Part shown: positions 445 through 22,219 of the stretch, one piece after another
Position numbering within the stretch: position 1 is the stretch's first letter
How the letters are laid out: each line of letters opens with the position of its first letter
Virus record (IMG/VR): IMGVR_UViG_2681813227_000011
Direction: 5' to 3' (one strand)
Length of the DNA: 22,219 nt
Source of the DNA: a virus
Taxonomy: Duplodnaviria; Heunggongvirae; Uroviricota; Caudoviricetes
Translations under genes and position numbers: made by a program
Notes under the pieces: model-generated
Databases searched by the model: none
Seen by the model: the letters and a program-made list of their open reading frames with translations, nothing else
What the model was told of the DNA's origin: nothing

Positions 445-879
445 TCATTCTCCTGTTCTGCCTGTATCACTGCCCACTTCATCCAGCCCCTTAACATCCT
501 GCCACGGCCCGTCACCAAACCTGACCTGCAAATGCCGAAACAGCCCCTGAACCTGTGTGGCATCTTTGGGGTCAAGAAAGGTCAGTCCGGTGATGAGCGC
601 ACCATCTGTATCCGGGAACCAGCCATGGCTGTTTGTCTCAATAATGCTCGCCGGCCCCAGACGAAAACGGATTTGTGTCTCCCCCGGGTCGCCCTTCGGT
701 CCCTGAGGTCCGGTTGCCCCCACCGGGCCAGCCGCACCTGTTTCTCCTTTCGGTCCCTGTGGGCCTGCCGGGCCTGCCGGGCCTGCCGGGCCTGCCGCAC
801 CGGTATCTCCCTTTGGACCCTGTGGACCTGCATTTCCCGTATAGCGCGGCGATTTTTTTGATACCGATTTGCATTTCAT
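445..879 (-). CDS. Collagen-like (Gly-X-Y) repeat protein, phage tail-fibre-like; possibly 5'-truncated
   Basis: About 20 uninterrupted G-X-Y triplets ([53 protein letters not shown]) followed by a ~70-aa globular C-terminus. The track ORF opens at 975, but 880..975 overlaps the direct-repeat region; start is uncertain (ATG near 879). Confidence 0.5.
762..797. repeat. Perfect 9-bp tandem repeat (GGGCCTGCC x4), in frame within the collagen-like gene
   Basis: Direct reading of gggcctgccgggcctgccgggcctgccgggcctgcc; encodes (AGP)n on the minus strand. Confidence 0.8.
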
Positions 880-925
880 TTGATACCGCTGAAAAACGCC
901 GATACGCAACTTATTTGATACTAAA
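855..925. repeat. Direct repeats of TTTGATAC(CG) (3 copies) in the gap between mom and the collagen-like gene; candidate prophage right-end or transposase-binding repeats
   Basis: TTTGATACCG at ~857 and ~879, TTTGATAC at ~914, plus CGATAC at ~900. Function inferred from position only. Confidence 0.3.
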
Positions 926-967
926 TCGGCGCTTTTCTTTTGAGTTTTAGAATGAGTTTTTAAGCGC

Positions 968-1705
968 TCATTCACTCTCTTTCAAACCAGTTTTAACTGT
1001 TTGTGGTTTTGGGTAAGGCTGGACTTTGAATAGCTTTGTGTTGAGGCGTTTTCTGGCCCTCTTGTTCAGAAACCGGATGTAACGAAACTGTCGGAACTTA
1101 TGAACACTGGCTCTGTCAATATTAGCCCTCAGATGTTCACCTCGTTGTCCGCCTCGTTTAATGGCATTCCTGCAAATCTCGTGATACCACTCGCCATCAA
1201 GTTCATAGAATATTGATTCATGGCTGCCTACATAATCAAAATTGCTTGCCTGATACACGACACCAAGACAGCCACAACGCTCATCTGCAAACGACTGAAC
1301 CCACTGTACCTGCGGATAAAGCTGCCTGATTAGCTTGAGCGCGTAACTGATTGCCCTTGATTCGGAGTTTCTCGGCATACAGTCATGCAGCCATAGCCGG
1401 TTAAGCTCCATATATTCTCGGTTCTGCGTACCCGTTACGACGCGTGCACCACTGTTTGGGTTAAGGGCGTAACCCCATTGCATTACGCCAACAAGTTCCC
1501 GTCCTGAAAATATGCCCAGATGAAGGTAGGAGTTATTTACGAAACGGTGGCTGTAATGTTTATTGACGATGACCAGTCTGGCCAGCCAGCAACTTATTGT
1601 CTCAACCCGCAACTCACGGGAGCCATAACCAACGATATTGTCGTTATAGCGAATAAGTTCAGGCGTGCTGATGATACGGGATGTGACTTGCTTTCTGTTC
1701 CCCAC
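968..1705 (-). CDS. mom: Mom-like DNA modification protein (anti-restriction adenine modification)
   Basis: ~230-245 aa ORF immediately downstream of and overlapping a Com-like zinc-finger ORF, positioned after the invertase as in phage Mu. Identity rests on synteny; exact start is uncertain. Confidence 0.55.
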
Positions 1706-1859
1706 GACAGGATTTCCTTGTGTATGTGGGGTGCTCTGTGGCGCTCGGAGATGTGATTTGATTGAGGGTTTTACAGCGCGGACATTTTACTTCCAGATAA
1801 CTGAAACTGGCCCGTGCCAGTAGCTTATTGCAGTGTCGGCACCGTATGTTTCGATACAT
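1659..1859 (-). CDS. com: Com-like zinc-finger translational activator of mom (start at internal MYRNIRC)
   Basis: [30 protein letters not shown]: CxxC-16-CxxC zinc finger in a ~66-aa protein resembling Mu Com as I recall it; its 3' end overlaps the mom start. Confidence 0.6.
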
Positions 1860-1904
1860 GGCCGCATAACCTCCTGCTTTGTTGTTGATGCCTTTTTCAT
1901 GCAA

Positions 1905-2082
1905 TCGATCGACAAAAACGATCGATTCGATTTGTTTAATTGATACAACAAATAGATTTAAAAGTCATCAACAATGATTCAGGGCGGTGATTATTTACTT
2001 AAAGAAAACGAAGACTTAGGTGGTGAAAACGATCATAAAATGATCATTTTATTGACTTTTTATCCAGTGAAGGTAGGATCGC
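1905..2082 (-). promoter_or_regulatory. Candidate com-mom promoter/regulatory region with clustered GATC (Dam) sites and a perfect 18-bp palindrome
   Basis: GATC at ~1907, 1920, 2031, 2042 and 2077 (5 in ~175 bp). ATAAAATGATCATTTTAT at ~2035-2052 is a perfect palindrome centred on a GATC. The region is AT-rich and lies upstream of com. Confidence 0.4.
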
Positions 2083-2345
2083 GCGTATATGTAGTATGTT
2101 TCAAATCAACAGGATACTACATAAAAGGGAAACCCAGCATAGCTGGAACTATGCTGGGCCGATTTAGACAAGTTTGCATCAATGCTTTACTTCGGGACTA
2201 CATAAATGGCGACTCAGATAGCGCGAACTATTCTGGGTCAATCTGTAAAAACTTGCATCAATGCTTCACTCTGAGCTCGTGGTGTATCCTATGATATTCC
2301 CCGGTCTCCTGTAAAGCAGAGATGCATCTGTTCAGGCAGGAGAAA

Positions 2346-2552
2346 ATGGATAAACTGACCACCGACCAAAAGTTACAGGCTGCGCGAATTGCAGCTGATA
2401 TCACAATTGCAGCAATGACATCCACCAGTTGTGTCTTTACCTCTTTTCATACAGCCGGTGATTCATCAGCTATGCAATTATGGAACGCGTGCTTTTCTGA
2501 TGTAATTCGGGCAATCAGCGAGTCAACTGACCCTCACGAACCGCAAAAATAG
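2346..2552 (+). CDS. Hypothetical small protein (68 aa from MDKLTTDQ)
   Basis: AGGAG Shine-Dalgarno 4-5 nt upstream of the ATG at ~2346; a hydrophobic stretch (IAADITIAAMTST). Converges on and overlaps the next ORF. Confidence 0.3.
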   Translation: MDKLTTDQKLQAARIAADITIAAMTSTSCVFTSFHTAGDSSAMQLWNACFSDVIRAISESTDPHEPQK

Positions 2553-2715
2553 CGCATCTTGGGGTACACAGGATCTGCATCGCTATCCACATTGCAGTGG
2601 TGAAGTTTCTATCCTGTAATGTATTTTCATCAAGTCCTGAACGTAGCGCATTGATAATTTCTGCGCTTAATATTTCCAGACCTTTGGTATCGGGCTGCTT
2701 TTTGTTCTTCTCCAT
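2515..2715 (-). CDS. Hypothetical small protein (66 aa)
   Basis: GAGG Shine-Dalgarno ~8 nt upstream of the ATG (agaggaaataatcATG). No recognisable family. Confidence 0.4.
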   Translation of the reverse strand: MEKNKKQPDTKGLEILSAEIINALRSGLDENTLQDRNFTTAMWIAMQILCTPRCAIFAVREGQLTR

Positions 2716-2789
2716 GATTATTTCCTCTGACTGGTATATACATCGCTCATGAAAATCAAACCGACAGGAGAAGCTGTCGGTTTGTATTG

Positions 2790-3035
2790 TTACATCATGG
2801 CACTGTCAGTTCCGGGCTGAACCGGCTCTGGTTGCTCTACGGGCTGAGGCTCATTCTCCGTGCTGTTTTCAGCCGGAGAATGGCCAACCATTCGGGCCAG
2901 CACTTCATCAACATATGCGTCGATTTGTGCCTCAAAATCCTTGCGAACCTGCGCCTTCAGCACGCGGTTCACTTCTTCAGAATAAAGTGCCTGTTTGACA
3001 AGCTCTTCAGTAACCGTGCCTTTAATCTCTGGCAT
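2790..3035 (-). CDS. Hypothetical acidic small protein (81 aa from MPEIKGTV)
   Basis: Strong Shine-Dalgarno (aaaaGGAGaatattcATG) at the internal start; the longer track ORF 2790..3146 is probably overextended. Acidic Pro/Glu-rich C-terminus. Confidence 0.45.
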   Translation of the reverse strand: MPEIKGTVTEELVKQALYSEEVNRVLKAQVRKDFEAQIDAYVDEVLARMVGHSPAENSTENEPQPVEQPEPVQPGTDSAMM

Positions 3036-3252
3036 GAATATTCTCCTTTTGCAGGTATATTGCCCCGTTATCAGAGCGGGTCGGGTCGTTTGGGGATGAC
3101 GGTGCCTGTGCTGTTTTACTGAGTTTTTCAGCTGCCGCATCATCAATTTTACGGCGAATATAATTTCTGATGACCTTATAACCGCCGCTCACCAGATATA
3201 ACGCACTGACCACAGCGCAGAAATAAAGCAGCATTGTATGAACGAATGTCAT
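3022..3252 (-). CDS. Hypothetical small membrane protein (76 aa, one predicted N-terminal transmembrane helix)
   Basis: LLYFCAVVSALYLVSGGY hydrophobic helix followed by a basic stretch; its stop overlaps the start of the next ORF by ~14 nt, suggesting a two-gene operon. Confidence 0.45.
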   Translation of the reverse strand: MTFVHTMLLYFCAVVSALYLVSGGYKVIRNYIRRKIDDAAAEKLSKTAQAPSSPNDPTRSDNGAIYLQKENIHARD

Positions 3253-3366
3253 ATAACCTTACCTTTGATATTGACTACATAATTCGTTATCGGGTAAAAA
3301 CATCGAAGCGACTGATAACCACTCCTTCGGGAGTATTTTTATTTTCCTTTATGGGTTAGGTAGCTC

Positions 3367-3400
3367 CCGCCAGCCATATCATGACCGGCGGGATTTTTTT
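3367..3400 (+). terminator. Hairpin plus T-run (terminator-like in plus-strand polarity)
   Basis: CCCGCC-N15-GGCGGG followed by TTTTTTT, at the 3' end of the esterase gene. Polarity is opposite to the surrounding genes, so its role is unclear. Confidence 0.3.
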
Positions 3401-5438
3401 ATTCTGTTACCGCTTTTTTCACTTCCACCACAATGCTGTCAATCAGCACCGGGTAAGTTGCATTTTTGGTGATATCCGTTACGCGGAGTTTGTCCACCGG
3501 GAAAGTTCCTACTGGTGACTGCGTCAGGGTAAACGCGGCACCATCCTGACCATCAATAACCGGAATAACCTGAAGGCTGTTATTTCCTGCAAAACGGAAG
3601 GCCAGCGTATGCCATTCATTATCAAATGCACCAAAGGTTCCCAGTTTCTGGTTATTTGTTGCCACTTTTGCATTGTGGTACATCACATTCAGGTCTTTTG
3701 CGTCTGTCTGGATGTAGAACGATGCCAGCAGATTATTCCCTGCATCCCCTGTCAGGGTGACACCCTGCGGCAGAGAGGAAACCGGCCAGTAAAGCGCCAT
3801 GACATACTGGTTTGCCACCAGGTCGCCCGGTACTTTAAAACGACAACTGATTAAACCACCATTTTTCAGCAGTTCAGCACCAGTACCGGCATCATGATCC
3901 AGATACCAGGATGATTTACCTGTTTCCTTGGTCAGTTTCATTGCCTTACCACCTGTGCCTCCTGCATCACTGATAATTTCAGCTTTACCGCCAGCCGGCT
4001 CCCAGCCCTGGGCTTTCAGATTTCCTTCTGACTCACTGACACGGTAAGACAGCAGTGTTGTGGTTACTGCTTCAGTTTCTGAAGGTGACGGCACTGGTGC
4101 TTCAGTTTCAGAAGATGGAACATCGGCTTTTACTGTGGTTCGCCCCGCATGAGTCAGAACTGCCGTGGCCAGACGGTCGGAAATAATCCCACGACGTGCC
4201 CATGAACTGAAATGGCTGGCCCGGTCCGCAGATGTCCAGGTGGCGGCACTGTTACGCCACGTTGAGCCGTAATAACCAATGGATTCAATATCCGGGTCTT
4301 CTGCCGGATTGTTGGTGGGTACATTCGCGCCATTTTCATCTGTCATTAATGGGACGAAATGAATGTTTTTATCTGTTTTATTTTTGTAGCCGTCATAGAT
4401 TGCCTGGTATGCCTGTTCGTTTTTCTGTTTCCAGAAATACGTGGTATCACCACAAATCCACGGAACGCCAGCAGCACTGCCACCGGTACACTGTTCCGCC
4501 TGTTCAGCCAGGTCTGCGCGGAATTTTTCCACCATCGCCAGAAACAGCGCAGAATGCTCCGTCGGCTTCGCATCAATATCAAACTCGCCCTGCATCCACA
4601 CCACAGCAAGCAGGCGGTTTTTCGGGTTCTTCGCCAGTGCCGCTTTTGTCCGGCTGATTAAGTCCTTATACAGCGGCTTATCCACACCCCAGCGGGCTGA
4701 GTCCTCTGAAGCACCCGTGCTGTCACTGTACGTGCCGTCAGCACCCGCCGTGAATGCAGAACCACCACGGCAGCAGGGAACCAGCAGAATCCCCGCATCT
4801 GCCGGAATAAACGGCAGCAGTTTTTTGGCAATGTGAAGCCCCTGACCCACGGTGCCATATTGCCCTTTAGCCACATCCGCTTTCGGGTGATTTTTTCCAC
4901 TCATATCCTGCACATCATGCAGACAGTGGTCGGCCAGAATGATGTCGTTATACTGACAGGCTTTACCTCCCGGCGTGACTGTACTGCGACGGGCTAACTG
5001 CATAATACGCGGTTCGGGGCGGTCATATGTCTCCGGCAGTGGCAGACCTTCACCGTAAGCCATACCGTTTGACTGACCAGCAAGAACCACCACGTAATAC
5101 CAGGAAGGGGAGCTGGAAGCAGTTTCATTTCCTGACGGACGGGTATGTGTTTCAGCATTATCCCAGTCTGACGGTTCAGCAGTACCGGCAACATCAGCAC
5201 TTAACGGAATGACCGCACCAATACCCGCTCCGGTAATTTCCACACTCGGATCACCGGATACTGGCCTTACCCACAGGCAATCCCGGGTATTAAAACTGAT
5301 GAGACAGTCAGCAAATGTCATTCCTCCTTTTGTTTCGGCCGGAGGAAAGGGAGCCTCAAGAAATGCCGCTGTACCACCGGAAACTTTAACAGTAAAGTTT
5401 CCGGGCATTGATGATAGTTGAACCCATTTGGACGTCAT
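3399..5438 (-). CDS. Prophage-type sialate O-acetylesterase (NanS-p-like): SASA/SGNH esterase domain plus C-terminal lectin-like domain
   Basis: VVVLAGQSNGMAYGEG matches the GQSN(M) catalytic-serine block of the sialate O-acetylesterase family. A Thr/Glu/Pro/Ser-rich linker and a ~200-aa C-terminal domain follow. 679 aa. Confidence 0.7.
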   Translation of the reverse strand: MTSKWVQLSSMPGNFTVKVSGGTAAFLEAPFPPAETKGGMTFADCLISFNTRDCLWVRPVSGDPSVEITGAGIGAVIPLSADVAGTAEPSDWDNAETHTRPSGNETASSSPSWYYVVVLAGQSNGMAYGEGLPLPETYDRPEPRIMQLARRSTVTPGGKACQYNDIILADHCLHDVQDMSGKNHPKADVAKGQYGTVGQGLHIAKKLLPFIPADAGILLVPCCRGGSAFTAGADGTYSDSTGASEDSARWGVDKPLYKDLISRTKAALAKNPKNRLLAVVWMQGEFDIDAKPTEHSALFLAMVEKFRADLAEQAEQCTGGSAAGVPWICGDTTYFWKQKNEQAYQAIYDGYKNKTDKNIHFVPLMTDENGANVPTNNPAEDPDIESIGYYGSTWRNSAATWTSADRASHFSSWARRGIISDRLATAVLTHAGRTTVKADVPSSETEAPVPSPSETEAVTTTLLSYRVSESEGNLKAQGWEPAGGKAEIISDAGGTGGKAMKLTKETGKSSWYLDHDAGTGAELLKNGGLISCRFKVPGDLVANQYVMALYWPVSSLPQGVTLTGDAGNNLLASFYIQTDAKDLNVMYHNAKVATNNQKLGTFGAFDNEWHTLAFRFAGNNSLQVIPVIDGQDGAAFTLTQSPVGTFPVDKLRVTDITKNATYPVLIDSIVVEVKKAVTE

Positions 5439-5537: not shown

Positions 5538-6098
5538 TTATTTTTCCGAAACGCTCGCAGGATAATAACGATAAAGGGTTGAAAGACCGATATCAAAAAT
5601 AAGTGCCACCTGTCTTCGACTGACACCCCCGGCCAGTAAACGCCCGACCTGCTCGTATTGTTCCTGCGTGAGACGGCGGGGTCTGCCGCCGGTTCGTCCC
5701 CTTTCACGGGCAGCTGCAAGACCAGCCCGTGTCCGTTCGACAATTAATTCACGCTCCATTTCTGCCAGCGCACCCATTATGTGAAAAAAGAAGCGCCCCA
5801 TGGGGGTTGACGTATCAATGTTGTCAGTAAGACTACGAAAATTTATCCCCTGTTGCTGTAATTCATCTGTCAGCGCAACAAGGTGGCGCATACTGCGCCC
5901 CAGCCTGTCCAGTTTCCAGACCATCAGCGTGTCACCGGGTTTTAGTTTCTTCAGTGCCCGCTTCAGTCCCGGCCGCTGTGTCGTTTTACCACTCATTTTG
6001 TCTTCAAAAATCTGCTCACATCCTGCACATTCCAGCGCATTTCTTTGTAAACCGGTGTTCTGGTCATTTGTTGATACGCGTATATAGCCAATCAGCAT
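5538..6098 (-). CDS. gin: Serine DNA invertase, Gin/Pin/Cin/Hin family
   Basis: N-terminus MLIGYIRVSTNDQNTGLQ (catalytic Ser in the resolvase/invertase motif), C-terminal helix-turn-helix, 186 aa, adjacent to an invertible tail-fibre segment. Confidence 0.9.
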   Translation of the reverse strand: MLIGYIRVSTNDQNTGLQRNALECAGCEQIFEDKMSGKTTQRPGLKRALKKLKPGDTLMVWKLDRLGRSMRHLVALTDELQQQGINFRSLTDNIDTSTPMGRFFFHIMGALAEMERELIVERTRAGLAAARERGRTGGRPRRLTQEQYEQVGRLLAGGVSRRQVALIFDIGLSTLYRYYPASVSEK

Positions 6099-6152
6099 GT
6101 ATTTACCTTCCTTAAAAAGAGGTGGAAAAGCCTTTTAAAGCAGATATACGGC

Positions 6153-6178
6153 ATCCCTGAAACCTCGGTTTACGGGAT
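6153..6178. other. gix-like recombination site (left, invertase-proximal)
   Basis: ATCCCTGAAACCTCGGTTTACGGGAT: inverted counterpart of the site at 7579..7604 with central AAACC-TC-GGTTT. It is ~55 bp upstream of the invertase start and directly follows an in-frame stop. Confidence 0.65.
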
Positions 6179-6532
6179 ACGGTAAACAGGGCCGCGAATG
6201 CCCTGCCATCAAACGGTACGGCTGTTGCAGCAAGCAGGCTGGCAAATGCCCGCAGAATCAATGGTGTCGCCTTTGACGGCACGCAGGATATAAACATTAC
6301 GTCAGGAATGCCGGAATCAACGGCCAATCAGCGTTATGTTACAGGGGTAAGACTGGGAGCGCAGGCATTAAGCGGCGGACTGGAATATAATTACTCCCTG
6401 TCATCAGGAAATGTGATTACCGGTTTTAAGACTGACGGAGACTGGGAAATGCGTGGTGGTGATGACCGTGTTTATTACAGACAGATACAATATTGTATTA
6501 ATGGGCATTGGGTATCCGCTGCAAGTATTTAA
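6161..6532 (+). CDS. Silent alternative tail-fibre C-terminal cassette (Sv'-like; no start of its own in this orientation)
   Basis: Plus-strand frame translates to NLGLRDTVNRAANALPS...RYVTGVRLGAQ...YYRQIQYCINGHWVSAASI, parallel to the C-terminal 127 aa of the expressed fibre (NLGLRETVNKAADALPS...RYVQNVQLGAQ...YYRPVQIYINNAWRTVSSV). A TGA sits immediately upstream. Confidence 0.7.
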   Translation, partial: NLGLRDTVNRAANALPSNGTAVAASRLANARRINGVAFDGTQDINITSGMPESTANQRYVTGVRLGAQALSGGLEYNYSLSSGNVITGFKTDGDWEMRGGDDRVYYRQIQYCINGHWVSAASI

Positions 6533-6653
6533 TTAACGGGGGCATAGCACACAGCAGCCAGCATCTGAAATATGCGTTATTTCAGACAAGCATTGCCTGT
6601 ATATGGCGATAGTATTATTCCTGTTTTTATCATTGATTTACATGGTGATGTTT

Positions 6654-7175
6654 ATGCAACTGATTAATGTCAAACGATATTACCCGAAAGACAAACCCTA
6701 TGGTGAGGATGTTCAGTATTTCCAGAGTGAGGACGGAAGGGATTTTTATGAATCTATCCCGCTTTTTACAAAGAAATACAAACTCTGTATTTCGCCTGTA
6801 ACGGGTATTATCTGCTCTGTTGCTGAAGATGTCTCTGCTTTATATCCGGCAGGTTTTACTGTTGTTGAAGTGGACGAACTGCCGGAAGGTGTGAATATTG
6901 ACGGTAACTGGCAGTTTTCTGATGGCCTGATATCAAAGGTGCCGGTAAACTGGAAGACGGTTGCTGAAAAGCGTCGCTCATCGCTGCTCCAGGAAGCCAA
7001 CGAAACCGTGGATGACTGGAAAACAGAATTAAAACTGGACATGATTAGCGATGAAAATAAATTACAGCTGACGCGCTGGATGGCGTATATCCGACAGCTT
7101 AAAGAAATGCACTTTAATGATATTGCCAGTGAGGGGCATTACCAGGCGATTCCCTGGCCGGAAAAACCGGAATAA
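6654..7175 (+). CDS. Tail-fibre assembly protein (Mu U / lambda Tfa family), co-oriented with the silent cassette
   Basis: ~174 aa from MQLINVKRYYP. The C-terminus LTRWMAYIRQLKEMHF...AIPWPEKPE follows the Tfa pattern as I recall lambda Tfa. The track start at 6603 adds an implausible hydrophobic leader. Confidence 0.7.
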   Translation: MQLINVKRYYPKDKPYGEDVQYFQSEDGRDFYESIPLFTKKYKLCISPVTGIICSVAEDVSALYPAGFTVVEVDELPEGVNIDGNWQFSDGLISKVPVNWKTVAEKRRSSLLQEANETVDDWKTELKLDMISDENKLQLTRWMAYIRQLKEMHFNDIASEGHYQAIPWPEKPE

Positions 7176-7180
7176 TTCAG

Positions 7181-7203
7181 AGGGTGCATTCAGCACCCTT
7201 TTC
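7181..7203 (+). terminator. Hairpin plus T-run between the convergent Tfa and tail-fibre genes
   Basis: AGGGTGC-attca-GCACCCT-TTTT in the 34-bp gap between the Tfa stop (7175) and the tail-fibre stop (7210). Confidence 0.5.
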
Positions 7204-16298: not shown

Positions 16299-17798
16299 TC
16301 ACAAAATGAAACGGATCTGTGCTGCCAGGAAGCGGAACTGGTTAACCAGATCCGGCGTGCATAACACGTCAAGACGGTTTCGATCTGACGCATTACGCTC
16401 CACAAGCAGATTCTTTTTAAAGGTGTCCAGATTTTCGACCAGCCCGAGTTCCACCCACTCTTCACCCAGCGAAATTAACTGAAGCTTCATGATCTCCGGC
16501 GTCACGATATTCTGACCGGCACGAACGGGCGTCCCGTCATCAGCCAGTTTATGGCGCGGAAAACGTTGTGTGATAAAAGTACGCAGGGAATAACGCAGCC
16601 AGGAGAGGGTGTAGATGGTTTCCACATCCAGATAGCTGGGATCACTTTCGCCGTACACGTTCTGGCGATACATGGTCACCTGACGTTCGATCTGAACCAC
16701 ATCACCGGCAGCCACACTGACCGTGGCAATCCCTCCCCACAGCAGACTGTTACGCTCTTCACGCGTCAGACGATCGGCCGGGGCCGGGGCCATGCGTGAC
16801 GGAAGCGCCAGCGTCTGAAGCGGACGCGCAGGATCTGCCCCCAGAGACGGCGCACAGGTGGCGCAGACCGCCGCTGCCCAGAGGTAATCCGGTTCAGGGG
16901 CTTTGGGAATGAATGTGCAGGTCGCCAGAAAATCATTGCGTTTTGCCCCGAATGCCTGCACCTCACCAAACGTGCCGGTATGCGCCATCCACAGCACACC
17001 GTCAGACATTTTGGCCGGTCCCCAGCGTTTCAGAAGCTCATCACTGATGATTTTCAGGTTTGCATCATCCTTATAGGGCATGACGACATAGTTGTACTGG
17101 CGATCGCCCATACCCGCCACGCTTCGGGTGATATCCGGGTTAGTGGCTTTTGTTTTGGGATACCCAAGTTCAATGGTCAGTCCACCCGGTGTGGTTTCTC
17201 CGTCATGATAATTAACACGGATATCATGTACGGAACATTCACCGGTAAAACGGGCATTAATTCCCATACTTCCCTTGAGTCCGCTGGCGTTATCTGCTAC
17301 CTGACCTGCATAAGCACTGAAGGGCGCATCAGCATCGGCATTAATAACAGAGACCAGAGCGTCAATAAGCTCCTTACCCTTCTGCCCTTTCGTGACAGCC
17401 AGCAGATAACGCCGACCGCCGATATAAATGTGCAGAACACCATCCTGAGAGGCGGTGCCAATTATATTCATGAGACATGCCTGAGCCTGACCGGTGCCGC
17501 TCCCCTGAGCAATGGCATACAGTTCAGCATCAGGATTGATGGCGATAAATTCCGCCACCATCAGGGCAATCATGGAGCCGCGCCCCCAGAATTCTGTTGC
17601 CTGAGACGCACGGGTGATCCTGACCGGAACATCCAGAACACCGGCACCGTCCACGGCATTCTCTTTCATTCTCGCCTGACCAAACAGCAGCACACACTGA
17701 CGCTGTGCCGGAGTGCCGGTGACAGCCATGGAGTTATTAAACTCAACCTCAATCAGCGGTATACGGCGGTCATTACCGATCCCGTCAAAATTAATCAT
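16299..17798 (-). CDS. L: Contractile tail sheath protein (Mu L-like)
   Basis: 499 aa, conserved size and position upstream of the tube gene. Confidence 0.85.
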   Translation of the reverse strand: MINFDGIGNDRRIPLIEVEFNNSMAVTGTPAQRQCVLLFGQARMKENAVDGAGVLDVPVRITRASQATEFWGRGSMIALMVAEFIAINPDAELYAIAQGSGTGQAQACLMNIIGTASQDGVLHIYIGGRRYLLAVTKGQKGKELIDALVSVINADADAPFSAYAGQVADNASGLKGSMGINARFTGECSVHDIRVNYHDGETTPGGLTIELGYPKTKATNPDITRSVAGMGDRQYNYVVMPYKDDANLKIISDELLKRWGPAKMSDGVLWMAHTGTFGEVQAFGAKRNDFLATCTFIPKAPEPDYLWAAAVCATCAPSLGADPARPLQTLALPSRMAPAPADRLTREERNSLLWGGIATVSVAAGDVVQIERQVTMYRQNVYGESDPSYLDVETIYTLSWLRYSLRTFITQRFPRHKLADDGTPVRAGQNIVTPEIMKLQLISLGEEWVELGLVENLDTFKKNLLVERNASDRNRLDVLCTPDLVNQFRFLAAQIRFIL

Positions 17799-18040
17799 TG
17801 CGGTTTCTCCTTATCGGATGCCGGTTGGGCGACCGGTTTTTCTGTCGCAGTCGTTGCATCCGCAGATACAGCCGGAGCCTCTTCAGCGGCTTTTTCAGCC
17901 TGAATGACATCGCCGTCATCAAGACGCCGACACCAGAACGGCGTAAAGGGCTTTTCCTCCCCCTCCTGTGCCAGCGGGCGCATTGTGTCGGGATCACGAA
18001 TCAGGCGTCCCGGCGCGGGTTTGATAAAGATGGTTTTCAT
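17795..18040 (-). CDS. Small head/neck protein (DUF2635-like, Mu gp38-like)
   Basis: 81 aa, ATGA overlap with the sheath gene, acidic Ala/Glu-rich C-terminus. Confidence 0.55.
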   Translation of the reverse strand: MKTIFIKPAPGRLIRDPDTMRPLAQEGEEKPFTPFWCRRLDDGDVIQAEKAAEEAPAVSADATTATEKPVAQPASDKEKPQ

Positions 18041-18601
18041 TTACAGTTCCTCCGGCGGTTCGACCGCCGTTGTCGTGTTCCCCGGCAAATCAATATGTGC
18101 CTCAAACGGCGGCGTACCGGGCGGCTCCACAAAGGTTTCGTAATGACGCAGGAAGTCGTCCAGCGAGCTGATATCGGTCAGCGGTGCGATCATTTCCTCG
18201 CAGGAGAAATAAAGCGCATACATCACCGCACCACTGTCCGCCTGGGTTTCGGTGTAACCGTTGACCGCCTTTTCAAAGTAAAGCGGTGAGGTTTTTTCTG
18301 TTCTGAAGCCGTTAAGCACGGCAATCAGCCGGGCCACAATCTGATACAATCCGGGACGGCTGGCCTCACGCCCGTTGAGCATGTCGCCGATGACGTAGAA
18401 CACCCAGTGACTGACCAGGCGACCACGGGTACGGCCTTCACCGGCACCCAGCCAGGCAACGTAGATCGCCGGGGCGTTAATCAGCATGGTGCGCAGTACG
18501 CTGTCGCTCCAGTCGCCGGGATGCGTGTCAACAGACACCAGTTCATTCCCGAAATACTCACGGATACGGGCGATGTATGCCTGTTCGGTTTCCGTAATCA
18601 T
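18041..18601 (-). CDS. Head-tail joining/neck protein (Mu gp37-like)
   Basis: 186 aa, translationally coupled to its neighbours; assigned by synteny. Confidence 0.6.
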   Translation of the reverse strand: MITETEQAYIARIREYFGNELVSVDTHPGDWSDSVLRTMLINAPAIYVAWLGAGEGRTRGRLVSHWVFYVIGDMLNGREASRPGLYQIVARLIAVLNGFRTEKTSPLYFEKAVNGYTETQADSGAVMYALYFSCEEMIAPLTDISSLDDFLRHYETFVEPPGTPPFEAHIDLPGNTTTAVEPPEEL

Positions 18602-19017
18602 ATGAAGCCCTTCTGGTTGCGCCCGAATACCGCTGCATCAGACTGAACCTGTGGTAAATCCCCGGATTCAGGGGCCGCTCCGTTCGTATCCACACCTACC
18701 GGCACATTGCCGTTCATGACATCTTTCAGCCAGGCCAGCGCCTCACGGTAACGGTCACGCGCCTGATCTGAGGCTCGCTGATCGCACAGGTAATAAAAGG
18801 CAATCGCGCAACAGTGCTGAACAAGAACGGCCGGAATAACCTCCAGCGGCAGCGTGTAACGGGCGGACAGATAGCTGTCGATAAGGGCTGACGCATCTGT
18901 CAGCGCCCGGTTCAGCTTGCGCGTATCCGGCTCATCCGAACGGGGCACAGCCAGTAACGGCCTGAGCAAATCCTCGCGGTAACGCGCCCGCATATCGGTT
19001 TCAGTGGCGTAATTCAT
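18598..19017 (-). CDS. Head completion/connector protein (Mu gp36-like, DUF1320-like)
   Basis: 139 aa, ATGA overlap with the next gene; assigned by synteny. Confidence 0.6.
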   Translation of the reverse strand: MNYATETDMRARYREDLLRPLLAVPRSDEPDTRKLNRALTDASALIDSYLSARYTLPLEVIPAVLVQHCCAIAFYYLCDQRASDQARDRYREALAWLKDVMNGNVPVGVDTNGAAPESGDLPQVQSDAAVFGRNQKGFI

Positions 19018-19370
19018 GCACGGGCCTGTTTCGCTTTGTTACCGGTCTTTTTCCAGGGAGCATCCTGTCCGGCTTCGGCTTCGGCTTCGGCTAAATCTGT
19101 ACCGGCCACTGCATGAACCACACCCGCCACGCTCCCCGCATCATCAGCAGACGTCTGTAGTATTCGCACAGTGAGGCATGGCTCCGCCTCCAGTCGGGCA
19201 AGCTGCTCCGGGGTGACCTCAACCTGCTGACGTCCACGCGTGAACAGAAACCCCGCACGACGAAACGCCGAACGACTGCAACGCACTTCTGCCAGCACCG
19301 TGACAGAATTGTCACCACTGACCTGAAGACCTGAATCATCTGTTGCTGCCACAGTGTGATGTTCATTCAT
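19014..19370 (-). CDS. Small head protein (Mu gp35-like), hypothetical
   Basis: 118 aa, GGAGG Shine-Dalgarno upstream, directly after the major capsid gene. Confidence 0.55.
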   Translation of the reverse strand: MNEHHTVAATDDSGLQVSGDNSVTVLAEVRCSRSAFRRAGFLFTRGRQQVEVTPEQLARLEAEPCLTVRILQTSADDAGSVAGVVHAVAGTDLAEAEAEAGQDAPWKKTGNKAKQARA

Positions 19371-19413
19371 ATTTGCCCTCCGCAGGGGCCGGGCCGCAAG
19401 CCCGGCTCACCGT

Positions 19414-20361
19414 TTACAGATAATCCGCGACAACCAGCTCCAGCTTGCCCTTCATCTCGTTAGAGACGGTTGCGTTTCCGTCTGCGAACAGTTCACGCTC
19501 CAGCAGCTGCACCGCCTGTTTTTCCAGCGAGGTGGGGACAACAATATGGGTGGGTTTAATGCCGAGTTTGCGGCCACCGTCAGCGGTAAATTCGCGCATG
19601 GCTGACCAGCCGTGCCACAGTGCATCCAGCGTCAGCGGTGACTGCATCATGTAGGCCATCTGCCAGAAGCCGTAGCCCACATTGCGACGGGCGGATGCAC
19701 CAAACACAAATTCGTTATCGGTGAATGCGCGGCCTTCATCGACTTTGGTCTGGGCAACCAGTTCAGCCTTACGGCGATCCTGATAAATCAGCGGTTTTAC
19801 CGCGCGGGAGCAGTCAAGCAGATACCAGGCCGGACCGCTGTAATCAGCCTGTGCGCCGACAGAGCCGGTTTTTGCCACAAACATATTGCTGACCATCTGC
19901 GCATCCCCGGAGCCATCCACTTTGGGGTAAACCGGATGTTCGGTATCAAAGAAGTTCTGACCGTCATAGCAGGCCGCACTGATCCCGTCACGCAGGGCAG
20001 CAAAGACCAGCTCATCCGGTTGTACCGCCGCAGCGCGCCCCATCTCCTGGAACAACGGGGAATAAATACCGAGGTTGTCGTCTTCGAAGTCATCGCGGCT
20101 AATGGCGACAGTGCCTTCAAAAGTTTTGTTCACGATGGCATAGCCATAGGCTTTCATCTTCTCGATGACGCGGGAGCCGATCCACTCACGGAACTGCGGG
20201 AACTGCCCCAGCCAGCCGTAGGTGTTGGATTTCGATGTGGAGGGCACGGTCATCGCAATTTTTTTGTACTGCGACGGGGCCATGGACATCCCGGCCTGAA
20301 AATCAGAACGGTAGCCCGTCATCAGGGCGGTGATCATCGCCGGTGTAATCGGGGTAGGCAT
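19414..20361 (-). CDS. T: Major capsid protein (Mu T-like)
   Basis: 315 aa, directly downstream of the protease/scaffold gene with an ATG/stop overlap; typical Mu-type capsid protein size. Confidence 0.85.
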   Translation of the reverse strand: MPTPITPAMITALMTGYRSDFQAGMSMAPSQYKKIAMTVPSTSKSNTYGWLGQFPQFREWIGSRVIEKMKAYGYAIVNKTFEGTVAISRDDFEDDNLGIYSPLFQEMGRAAAVQPDELVFAALRDGISAACYDGQNFFDTEHPVYPKVDGSGDAQMVSNMFVAKTGSVGAQADYSGPAWYLLDCSRAVKPLIYQDRRKAELVAQTKVDEGRAFTDNEFVFGASARRNVGYGFWQMAYMMQSPLTLDALWHGWSAMREFTADGGRKLGIKPTHIVVPTSLEKQAVQLLERELFADGNATVSNEMKGKLELVVADYL

Positions 20362-21485
20362 TATTGCATTTCCTCTTTCATTTTCAGGAACTCGGCTTCG
20401 GTTTTACCCAGCAGTTTGGCGGCCGCGATATCTTCAGCCGACAGCACAGCGGTGGCAGTCTTTTTATCCGGCACGGTCACGGTGTCGGTCTGAAGGCCGG
20501 TCAGGGCCGCAACCGGCTGGCGGGCGTCAAGCTGTGCAGAAAGTGCCGCCACGCCAATCTGCCCGCCCAGTTGTTCCAGATAGCCGCGTTCACTTTTGAA
20601 GATGCGTCCTTCGGACTCGGCCTTGTCCAGCAACTGCTCCAGCGTGGTGCTGCCGTGCTGCGCCGACAGCGCAACGTATTCGGTACGCAGGGCGTTATAC
20701 GTTTCAACGGGCACGTATTTCGTCAGGTCAATACTGCCGCCAGCCGGTGTGCCTTTTGCAGTTTCCAGCTCTGCCGACAGACTGGCGACCTGTGTTTTCA
20801 GGTTGTCGTGTGCATCCGCACGGGTTTTGATCCCGGTGAGGGCAGACAGCGCTGCCGTGCCCAGCTCCGGCGTAAATTCGTCACCGTCAGCCACGGTCAG
20901 ACCGAGCGCCGTCAGCAACTGGCGTAATTGCTCATTCATGGAGGTATCCTTTAAAGGAGGGTTTAAGGCGTTATAAAGGTCATCCGCCGACAGTGCGGCG
21001 ACAGGATTCATGCCGGTCAGACCGGGGTCACCGGTAATAGCCAGCATCCGAAGTTCGACAGGTTCGCCGGTGCTCTCGTCATAGCCAATCACCGGTGAAA
21101 ACCAGGGGAATTCGTTATTACGCAGATGTTCAAGGGCCGGAGGGTTCCACTTCGGGCGCACCTCGAAACCTCGCTCTTCACTGAAGCGAAAATTCTCCGG
21201 TGAGGCCATCACAAAACCGGCAGCCGGTGCCGGATGTCCCTCAATCAGGGTCTGGTGGTTGTAGTCAATTTTCACCGGCTGATTGAGCGCCACAACACGG
21301 GAGACCATGCGCTCAACGGCTGCATGGTTGATCAGCCAGCCCTCGGCCGGTTTTTCCGGGAGACCGTCACGGGCCTTTACCCGACCGGCTGGCATGATCT
21401 GACACCAGTCACCGTCCCCGTCTGCGGACAGGCTGATGGCATTCAGAATGGCATAAGCAAGTTTGGGCGTGTTTTTCGTCTTCAT
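20361..21485 (-). CDS. I: Head maturation protease/scaffold protein (Mu I-like)
   Basis: 374 aa; the C-terminal third is an Ala/Leu/Glu-rich predicted coiled coil (scaffold-like); it immediately precedes the capsid gene. Confidence 0.8.
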   Translation of the reverse strand: MKTKNTPKLAYAILNAISLSADGDGDWCQIMPAGRVKARDGLPEKPAEGWLINHAAVERMVSRVVALNQPVKIDYNHQTLIEGHPAPAAGFVMASPENFRFSEERGFEVRPKWNPPALEHLRNNEFPWFSPVIGYDESTGEPVELRMLAITGDPGLTGMNPVAALSADDLYNALNPPLKDTSMNEQLRQLLTALGLTVADGDEFTPELGTAALSALTGIKTRADAHDNLKTQVASLSAELETAKGTPAGGSIDLTKYVPVETYNALRTEYVALSAQHGSTTLEQLLDKAESEGRIFKSERGYLEQLGGQIGVAALSAQLDARQPVAALTGLQTDTVTVPDKKTATAVLSAEDIAAAKLLGKTEAEFLKMKEEMQ

Positions 21486-21661
21486 TCCGGCAGCATAGGC
21501 CGGGAATTTTCAGGGCGGGTTTTGCGGGATTTCAGGAAGTGCTTTCAGGGGAAAAATACAAAGGCGCTTCACGCAGATTTTAAAGCCCGTTAAATTCAGG
21601 TTAGAAAATCACGACACGCGCCTGAAGGGGGTAAGGTAATGCATTTGCATACCTTAAACAA
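21486..21661 (-). promoter_or_regulatory. G-I intergenic region: candidate late promoter with dyad-symmetry elements
   Basis: Only substantial non-coding gap (176 bp) in the morphogenesis operon. Contains the near-perfect palindrome AAGGTAATGCATTTGCATACCTT and CCTTAA-N4-TTAAGG just after the G stop. Confidence 0.35.
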
Positions 21662-22135
21662 TTAAGGCGTTTCTGTGGCCTTTTTAAAGCGTTTTCTGAT
21701 TTCGTCCATGATCTCCTGCTCTGCCACCTGATCAAAGCCCATATACGGACGTGCACCAATGGCCGCCGGTCCAGGCGGCATACCTGGCAGGCCCCCCCAC
21801 TGATGAATGGCCGCATAAGGCTCATTTGATCCAATCAGCGCCCAGGTATCGCCATAATCCGTGGTCAGGCGTCGGGCCAGATCGCCGTTCAGCGTCAGGA
21901 TTTTGCCGGGCATGTATCCCTTACGGGTACGCCACTTGCGGTAAGGATCTGACCAGTCATGCCAGCGTTCGCCGTCCGGCTCTTTTTCCTGTTCAAACGC
22001 CATTTCTGACGATGACAGAAGGCTGGACGCCACACTGCGGGTCAGGTCTTTTCCACCACCCACAAACTGAAGCCGGGCAAAGACCCGCTGGAGACGCGTA
22101 ACGTCAACAACGACAGCGGCATCAATGGATGACAT
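21662..22135 (-). CDS. G: Virion morphogenesis protein (Mu G-like)
   Basis: 157 aa, GGAGG Shine-Dalgarno upstream, positioned upstream of the I-like gene as in Mu. Confidence 0.7.
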   Translation of the reverse strand: MSSIDAAVVVDVTRLQRVFARLQFVGGGKDLTRSVASSLLSSSEMAFEQEKEPDGERWHDWSDPYRKWRTRKGYMPGKILTLNGDLARRLTTDYGDTWALIGSNEPYAAIHQWGGLPGMPPGPAAIGARPYMGFDQVAEQEIMDEIRKRFKKATETP

Positions 22136-22219
22136 ATTGCCTCCGCATAAAGGATGAATATAAAATAAACAGGCGGTCAGTGTACGCTTAACTTGTAGTG
22201 GTCAAGTAATATTGGCCAC

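Follow-up and report, generated by a model that had tools for sequence, protein, structure and literature searches.

Two independent modules of small genes among the cargo of a defective Escherichia coli Mu-like prophage

The IMG/VR record IMGVR_UViG_2681813227_000011, a stretch of 22,219 nucleotides (nt) called here the window, is the right-hand part of an Escherichia coli Mu-like prophage in reverse reading, with the gene order mom, com, cargo region, esterase and gin. Four small open reading frames (ORFs) lie in the cargo region, and an initial annotation had proposed them as the best candidate in this sequence for an undescribed system. From our analysis it is evident that the four small genes are two independent modules, which are neighbours in the cargo region between gin and com, and that the prophage is a defective one. 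Module A consists of two minus-strand genes which follow the esterase and belong to the families DUF1378 and DUF826, while Module B is a convergent pair, called here MDKLTT and MEKNKK from the first residues of the two products (Table 1).

The ORF list returned all four ORFs at the coordinates and on the strands previously given, with the 38-nt and 14-nt overlaps, and Shine-Dalgarno motifs can be read directly from the sequence in front of each one (AGGAG 3 nt upstream of the MDKLTT start, GAGGA 7 nt upstream of the MEKNKK start, AAGGAG 7 nt upstream of the DUF826 start and TAAGG upstream of the DUF1378 start). The lower guanine-plus-cytosine (GC) content of the block was also reproduced: it is 0.464 at 2300-3260, while the whole window has 0.536 and the part at 6100-22219 has 0.555. 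The lowest GC content of all falls outside the four ORFs, in the AT-rich region of Table 1. The cargo region is absent from Mu, as had been stated, and it is mosaic and exchangeable.

Table 1. Positions of the genes and other features in the window
Feature	Position	Strand	Description
Palindrome	1903-1927		Upstream of com; two GATC sites
AT-rich region	1905-2345		GC 0.39; between com/mom promoter side and cassette; common to both cassette types
ORF1974	1974-2294	+	phrog_26524 match; probably not a gene
GATC-containing palindrome	2021-2066		Inside ORF1974; two GATC sites
Terminator-like hairpin, 13-bp stem	2131-2160	-	Inside ORF1974
Imperfect direct repeat	2139-2191 and 2218-2270		Copies 77% identical, 79 bp start to start
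Module B, MDKLTT/MEKNKK convergent pair	2346-2715	+/-	Cassette ~2330-2760
MDKLTT gene	2346-2552	+	68 amino acids (aa); acidic, soluble, predicted helical hairpin
MEKNKK gene	2515-2715	-	66 aa; soluble, predicted small helical bundle
3' overlap of MDKLTT and MEKNKK	2515-2552	convergent	38 nt
Hairpin, 11-bp stem	2757-2784	both	Terminator-like on both strands; between DUF826 and MEKNKK
Module A, DUF1378 and DUF826	2790-3252	-	Two genes after the esterase
DUF826 gene	2790-3035	-	81 aa, isoelectric point (pI) 4.4; PF05696 2.9e-15, phrog_311 8.8e-30
DUF1378 gene	3022-3252	-	76 aa here; PF07125 4.9e-38, phrog_494
mom	968-1705	-	ORF list, Pfam, PGAP
com	1659-1859	-	ORF list, Pfam, PGAP
NanS-p-type esterase (SASA + DUF6645)	3399-5438	-	PF03629 + PF20350; first gene of the transplanted trio
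gin	5538-6098	-	ORF list, Pfam, PGAP

The two halves of the block have separate distributions. The trio made of esterase, DUF1378 and DUF826 occurs in roughly 200 E. coli genomes without the convergent pair, and in other Mu-like phages the convergent pair has neither DUF gene adjacent to it. A hairpin stands between DUF826 and MEKNKK, and we assigned it to the Module B cassette because the alternative cassette of the same slot has a different one. The initial annotation read all four ORFs as one undescribed toxin-antitoxin, exclusion or defence system, and their adjacency in a cargo region of lower GC content, together with the good ribosome-binding sites, would agree with this. However, the separate distributions already contradict such a system, the terminator hairpin lies between the halves, recombination breakpoints are located between the two halves and, in addition, between DUF1378 and DUF826, the two DUF genes are part of a lambdoid esterase trio and no defence model is matched; we therefore consider a single four-gene system highly improbable. 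A PADLOC-DB v2 scan of six proteins, with E values up to 1, gave no defence-protein match, and an Rfam scan of 1800-3500 gave chance-level matches only. Separating the modules prevents four adjacent small ORFs from being taken as one novel system. What stands of the undescribed system is the convergent pair, a genuine and conserved two-gene unit, whereas DUF1378 and DUF826 form a known module.

DUF1378, DUF826 and the NanS-p-type esterase

None of the four proteins had been recognised in the initial annotation. This holds for MDKLTT and MEKNKK, which are without a significant Pfam or NCBIfam match, but not for the other two. The DUF1378 protein scores 129.6 bits with PF07125, where the cut-off is 25, and the match spans residues 1-58 of a profile with 59 positions; the DUF826 protein scores 56.6 bits with PF05696, whose cut-off has the same value. 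Among the four products only that of the DUF1378 gene has a transmembrane-grade hydrophobic segment, as had been reported, and this corresponds to an N-terminal signal-anchor helix (hydropathy 2.02, residues 3-21) followed by a basic stretch. The DUF826 protein, correctly described as acidic, has a helical N-terminal half and a tail rich in proline and glutamate.

The length of 76 aa and the 14-nt overlap between the DUF1378 and DUF826 ORFs are present in the window, but they are not the norm for these genes: both arise from a 1-bp deletion in a G-run of the DUF1378 gene (GGGG to GGG at 3078-3080), unique to the window and its identical genome record. The other loci with this exact stretch (five out of five) have GGGG and encode a 60-aa protein ending in NDPTPL, and one of them is a contig with an MDKLTT/MEKNKK cassette 100% identical to that of the window. 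In the 60-aa alleles the stop codon lies ~36 nt before DUF826, which places the ancestral end at ~3072 in window coordinates, and PGAP flags the DUF1378 gene of the window as a pseudogene. The ancestral DUF1378 product is thus a membrane protein of 60 aa with a single pass. In this strain the frameshift affects its last two codons, and our analysis corrects an artefact of that frameshift. Since only the last two residues are changed, the protein may still work.

The same genes are found in lambdoid phages, where the order is Q ... esterase, DUF1378, DUF826 and holin S, as in phage PhiR12_2, in EDL933 and in the lambdoid prophage which surrounds the element studied here. Some annotated Stx2a phage genomes have, in the interval from nanS-p to S, genes with a DUF826 or DUF1378 domain, and NanS-p has been proposed to confer a growth advantage on Shiga-toxin-producing E. 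coli (PMC10462455). This was the only relevant paper found to mention the two DUF families, and we found no literature tying nanS-p to Mu-like phages. In Mu-like phages the same trio is located between gin and com and the holin is absent, and ~200 complete E. coli genomes contain at least 80% of the DUF1378-DUF826 stretch.

We compared the locus with the late-operon segment carrying nanS-p, DUF1378 and DUF826 in the L0105 region of 933W. The three families, their order and their orientation are the same, each gene has its own ribosome-binding site, and in both cases the esterase has SASA and DUF6645 domains. The differences concern the surroundings, which here are those of a Mu-like phage, with gin upstream and com and mom beyond, instead of a position downstream of the antiterminator Q; moreover, a terminator and the MEKNKK cassette follow in place of holin S, and the DUF1378 copy is frameshifted as described above. 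The source of the trio was the late operon of lambdoid or Shiga toxin (Stx)-type prophages, in which it stands directly upstream of the holin.

Alignment of the variants also revealed recombination breakpoints inside the trio, strain 48 having another esterase and another DUF1378 allele together with the same DUF826. Breakpoints of this kind are the outcome expected of exchange with co-resident lambdoid prophages. In this respect, positions 1900-3400 of the window are 100% identical to E. coli OkiPb01711 (NZ_AP042673.1), whose Mu-like element (viewed in locus L055, 2612000-2637000 of that record) is nested in a lambdoid prophage with its own set of esterase, DUF1378, DUF826 and holin, ~22 kb away and in the same orientation. 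This second trio in the same genome is an obvious partner for allele exchange.

The position immediately upstream of the holin in the lambdoid late operon could suggest that DUF1378 and DUF826 are lysis-associated, for instance as modulators of holin timing, and that in the Mu-like phage they are non-functional passengers of the esterase. Many lysis regulators are small single-pass membrane proteins, and DUF1378 is a protein of this type. On the other hand, in Mu-like phages the two genes are intact without an adjacent holin, in ~200 genomes, and their alleles co-vary with the esterase allele, and we regard a role in lysis as rather unlikely. The fact that DUF1378 and DUF826 moved with the esterase and without the holin, and stay intact, mildly favours the link with the esterase over the one with lysis. 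On these grounds the two proteins might assist the esterase, or have the envelope as their target late in infection, outside the lysis machinery. The transplantation of the intact trio without the holin is hence a clue tying two widespread uncharacterised genes to the NanS-p esterase rather than to lysis.

The convergent pair and its relatives

The two genes of Module B are oriented in opposite ways with respect to the phage: MDKLTT is antisense to the strand of gin, esterase, com and mom, while MEKNKK is co-directional with the phage genes. The cassette (2330-2760) is present in 17 out of 5426 complete E. coli genomes and has a GC content of 0.436 compared with 0.536 for the window. Its boundaries are sharp, the left junction following GCAGAGATGCAT at ~2329, and MDKLTT is the first cassette gene. 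In most such E. coli Mu-like prophages the same slot holds a zinc-ribbon ORF of 56 aa on the plus strand, accompanied by a different hairpin. One example of this alternative, at 4367-4537 (+) of locus L003 (a slot equivalent to about 2330-2790 of the window), encodes a basic 56-aa protein with two CPxC motifs and has an AAGGAG ribosome-binding site.

Both families are soluble and mostly acidic, and MEKNKK has a conserved core, NFxxAMW[IL]AMQxLCxP. The maximum 19-residue hydropathy is 1.23 for MDKLTT and 1.53 for MEKNKK, with lower values in the homologues, and therefore no segment of transmembrane grade is present. No significant match was obtained for the pair proteins in Pfam, NCBIfam, PADLOC or PDB sequences, and a comparison of the MDKLTT family with the MEKNKK family gave no sign of paralogy. 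AlphaFold2 gave helical models for both proteins, namely a small helical bundle for MEKNKK (predicted local distance difference test, pLDDT, 72.7) and, from the single sequence, a hairpin of two helices for MDKLTT (pLDDT 66), a model too weak to serve as a query. The MEKNKK model found no PDB match with Foldseek, and its matches in BFVD were at chance level only.

We compared three groups of E. coli alleles outside the overlap. The ratio of non-synonymous to synonymous substitution rates (dN/dS) lies at 0.08-0.20 in MDKLTT and at 0.05-0.13 in MEKNKK, values that point to two coding genes under purifying selection. The overlap shows no higher conservation than the sequence on either side, and substitutions there leave the MEKNKK protein unchanged but affect the C-terminal tail of MDKLTT. 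This unconstrained tail, the absence of MDKLTT from the PGAP annotation and the deletion of the gene or loss of its start codon in 3 out of 11 alleles could be taken to mean that MDKLTT is a chance ORF and that only MEKNKK is a gene. The dN/dS of MDKLTT in E. coli, together with a value of 0.15 between distant homologues in the same convergent position, effectively refutes this explanation, and we give it almost no weight.

Relatives of the pair are rare. An exhaustive HMMER scan of 1.84 billion representatives returned only two distant relatives of MEKNKK (E ~4e-4, 36-43% identity), both in Mu-like phages and both between a DUF1804 (gp27-like) gene and the large terminase gene (TerL). Two more MEKNKK-type members are in L043 and L052, and additional IMG/VR pattern scans yielded one more MDKLTT-type and one more MEKNKK-type locus. 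A word-index search with the pair proteins gave only E. coli proteins, at 82% identity or more; tblastn against GenBank phages found no match for either pair protein or for the Kosakonia homologue described below; among GTDB species representatives only the Kosakonia locus was found, and a scan of JGI metagenomes retrieved the E. coli type only.

The arrangement of the pair is nevertheless repeated in distant lineages. In L011, a Logan contig with one of the two relatives from the HMMER scan, the MEKNKK-type gene has a convergent 88-aa partner with an overlap of 26 nt; the N-terminus of this partner, LTTDQRIQVARIAAD, matches MDKLTT (BLASTP 4e-7 over LTTDQ.lQ.ARIAAD), and both proteins match phrog_25148. 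The third instance, in a Kosakonia sacchari SP1 prophage (L043), has a 94-aa MDKLTT-type partner and a 29-nt overlap, lies at the DUF1804-TerL site, and shows the start of the MEKNKK-type gene overlapping the DUF1804 stop. Between L011 and L043 the dN/dS is 0.15 for the MDKLTT-type gene and 0.20 for the other, and synonymous sites are close to saturated. The orientation does not vary among the three lineages: the MEKNKK-type gene is always directed along the late genes and the MDKLTT-type gene always against them.

The loss of the two genes is asymmetric. MEKNKK is intact in all 11 distinct E. coli cassette alleles, while in two of them a deletion bounded by GGTGATT repeats removed the first 37 codons of MDKLTT, and in a third allele the start codon of MDKLTT is lost. 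Every MDKLTT-type gene that our searches recovered had a MEKNKK-type neighbour; MEKNKK-type genes without an MDKLTT-type partner do exist, one facing a zinc-ribbon/DUF4145 protein (L012) and one alone (L052). Considering these data as a whole, it is very probable that the convergent pair is a genuine undescribed two-gene unit, with the anatomy described here, that moves together among Mu-like phages.

Two of these loci deserve separate mention. The protein at the MDKLTT-type position of L012 (draft genome GCA_006647045.1, 5259-6116, minus strand) has 285 aa, a zinc-ribbon-like region at the N-terminus and a DUF4145 domain, and its gene is a candidate prophage defence gene; its comparison with the MDKLTT-type proteins gave no relation, and the idea that they are relatives was rejected. 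In the MEKNKK-type frame of L052 (2833-3087, plus strand) none of the codons ATG, GTG and TTG occurs upstream of a 31-aa remnant; the frame is open in-frame directly after the DUF1804 stop, and it could be a decaying copy, a gene with an unusual start or a product of read-through.

Surroundings of the cargo genes

The Mu-like element of OkiPb01711 is a remnant, cut at IS3/IS30 just past the virion-morphogenesis gene, and it is without early region, lysis, terminase and portal genes. Just beyond mom, at 445-975 (-), an ORF has collagen repeats and the C-terminal domain of a prophage tail fibre (PF06820, PF01391), and the fibre gene adjoining it is flagged as truncated by PGAP. The Mu-like phage therefore seems to have integrated within a tail-fibre gene that belonged to a different prophage, in the vicinity of tccP and espJ. 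In two Mu-like prophages carrying MEKNKK (L008 and L009, 3668-4874, minus strand) Com is followed by a DNA cytosine methyltransferase which replaces Mom, meaning that the Com-controlled modification gene is swapped.

Between com and the cassette we also considered ORF1974 as a fifth gene, and rejected it. PGAP treats it as a frameshifted pseudogene, near-identical variants continue in different frames, frameshifts or stops interrupt it in L003 and L007, it is deleted in L008 and L009, and a terminator hairpin lies inside it; it is probably not a gene. We read the AT-rich region as a possible regulatory or leader region beside the Dam-site-rich control region of com and mom. The mom promoter region of Mu is under Dam/OxyR control, and, by analogy, the GATC palindromes upstream of com are consistent with a promoter region of this kind. 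The repeat stretch 2139-2270 expands and contracts by recombination, as indicated by Z869-type and L005-type alleles, which have a single hybrid copy.

Proposed mechanism of the pair and comparison with known systems

The initial annotation had thought of toxin-antitoxin, exclusion or defence functions, and our searches did not substantiate them: the pair is convergent, it has no PADLOC, Pfam or NCBIfam match, and neither of its proteins contains a segment resembling a membrane toxin. It is still possible to put forward, from sequence and gene order, that the two proteins act as effector and antidote, perhaps in defence or exclusion by the prophage, which would be immune to its own effector. 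MDKLTT would be a moron product expressed while the prophage is at rest, and MEKNKK would be made along with the late genes and would bind or counteract MDKLTT, while convergent transcription across both genes would help to keep the two states mutually exclusive. A sigma-70-like site, TTAACG-17-CATAAT, is located just upstream of the MDKLTT-type gene in L011 and L043, and no terminator is predicted within the late operon at these two loci. Between the hairpin and the MEKNKK start no convincing sigma-70 promoter was found, either by eye or by prediction. Our confidence in the effector/antidote mechanism is low and the proposal is tentative; its fullest form, a new two-protein module in which a prophage-expressed effector (exclusion, defence or toxic) and a late antidote are switched by overlapping convergent transcription, is unlikely on present data. 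The whole explanation, with two modules and this mechanism for the pair, blends anatomy and mechanism, and we would give it about an even chance.

Several points weigh against this reading. The prophage copy in the window is truncated, its early and middle regulatory genes are gone, and therefore "late" expression is impossible in this copy. The promoter-like site overlaps the start of a divergent gene, and its conservation may consequently reflect coding constraint, while in the window no canonical promoter was found near either gene of the pair, the only plus-strand candidate being ~270 nt upstream. Because the pair has only three independent lineages, the orientation rule and the asymmetry of loss have very few cases behind them. 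The confidence of the structure models is moderate or low, and the fold searches brought no informative match. Finally, MEKNKK-type may be a resident gene of the DUF1804-TerL junction and the convergent gene an unrelated insertion, and L012 and L052 fit this.

The two products could also be accessory proteins that act independently, such as anti-defence or host-modulating factors, with genes that share a slot and overlap because of genome compaction. Small, soluble and mostly acidic proteins are typical of phage accessory and anti-defence genes, and those of the pair are of this sort; MEKNKK-type genes without MDKLTT-type partners, the loss of MDKLTT in E. coli alleles in which MEKNKK is intact and an overlap not more conserved than its flanks go in the same direction. 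However, both genes moved jointly to an entirely different site in E. coli phages, and their mutual arrangement is kept across lineages with near-saturated synonymous sites. Independence of the two proteins is, in our opinion, somewhat unlikely.

Convergent geometry is shared by the prophage type I systems txpA/ratA, bsrG/SR4 and fst/RNAII, and the 3' overlap of the pair is kept in three lineages, so an RNA-level (type I-like) toxin-antitoxin or antisense switch was also taken into account, in which the 3' ends would pair and one protein would be the toxin. Against it, both ORFs are protein-coding and under purifying selection, no hydrophobic membrane-toxin segment is present (the maximum 19-residue hydropathy is below 1.6 in both families), the overlap has no extra nucleotide conservation and there is no Rfam match; this explanation is very unlikely. 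The pair, understood as an undescribed two-gene unit, is a small lead for further work, being rare, conserved and without a known domain, with a fixed orientation to the late genes and an asymmetric pattern of loss.

Module B was compared with four kinds of known systems. Phage morons, as defined by Hendrix and colleagues, are independent promoter-gene-terminator units inserted between conserved phage genes. Module B resembles them in lying between conserved genes, in its deviant GC content, in being exchangeable with an alternative cassette, in the terminator hairpin at its end and in having one gene oriented against phage transcription; it differs in being a two-gene convergent unit with overlapping 3' ends, whose own promoter is only putative. 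With the type I toxin-antitoxin systems named above it has in common the convergent genes, the short 3' overlap and the prophage location, but both its partners are conserved proteins and there is no hydrophobic toxin peptide. Type II toxin-antitoxin systems, and prophage defence genes with a cognate inhibitor, share with Module B two small co-travelling proteins, one losable and the other always retained; unlike them, Module B is not a co-directional operon, has no known toxin, antitoxin or defence domain and shows no DNA-binding features. Anti-CRISPR/aca insertions lie in the late operon of Pseudomonas Mu-like phages, and like the pair they encode accessory proteins of small size and often acidic character within the structural or late part of a Mu-like genome, whereas Module B occupies another site, has no helix-turn-helix gene of the Aca type and bears no similarity to the known families. 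Overall, the pair is a modest lead, and it is best filed in the class of phage morons and accessory cassettes.

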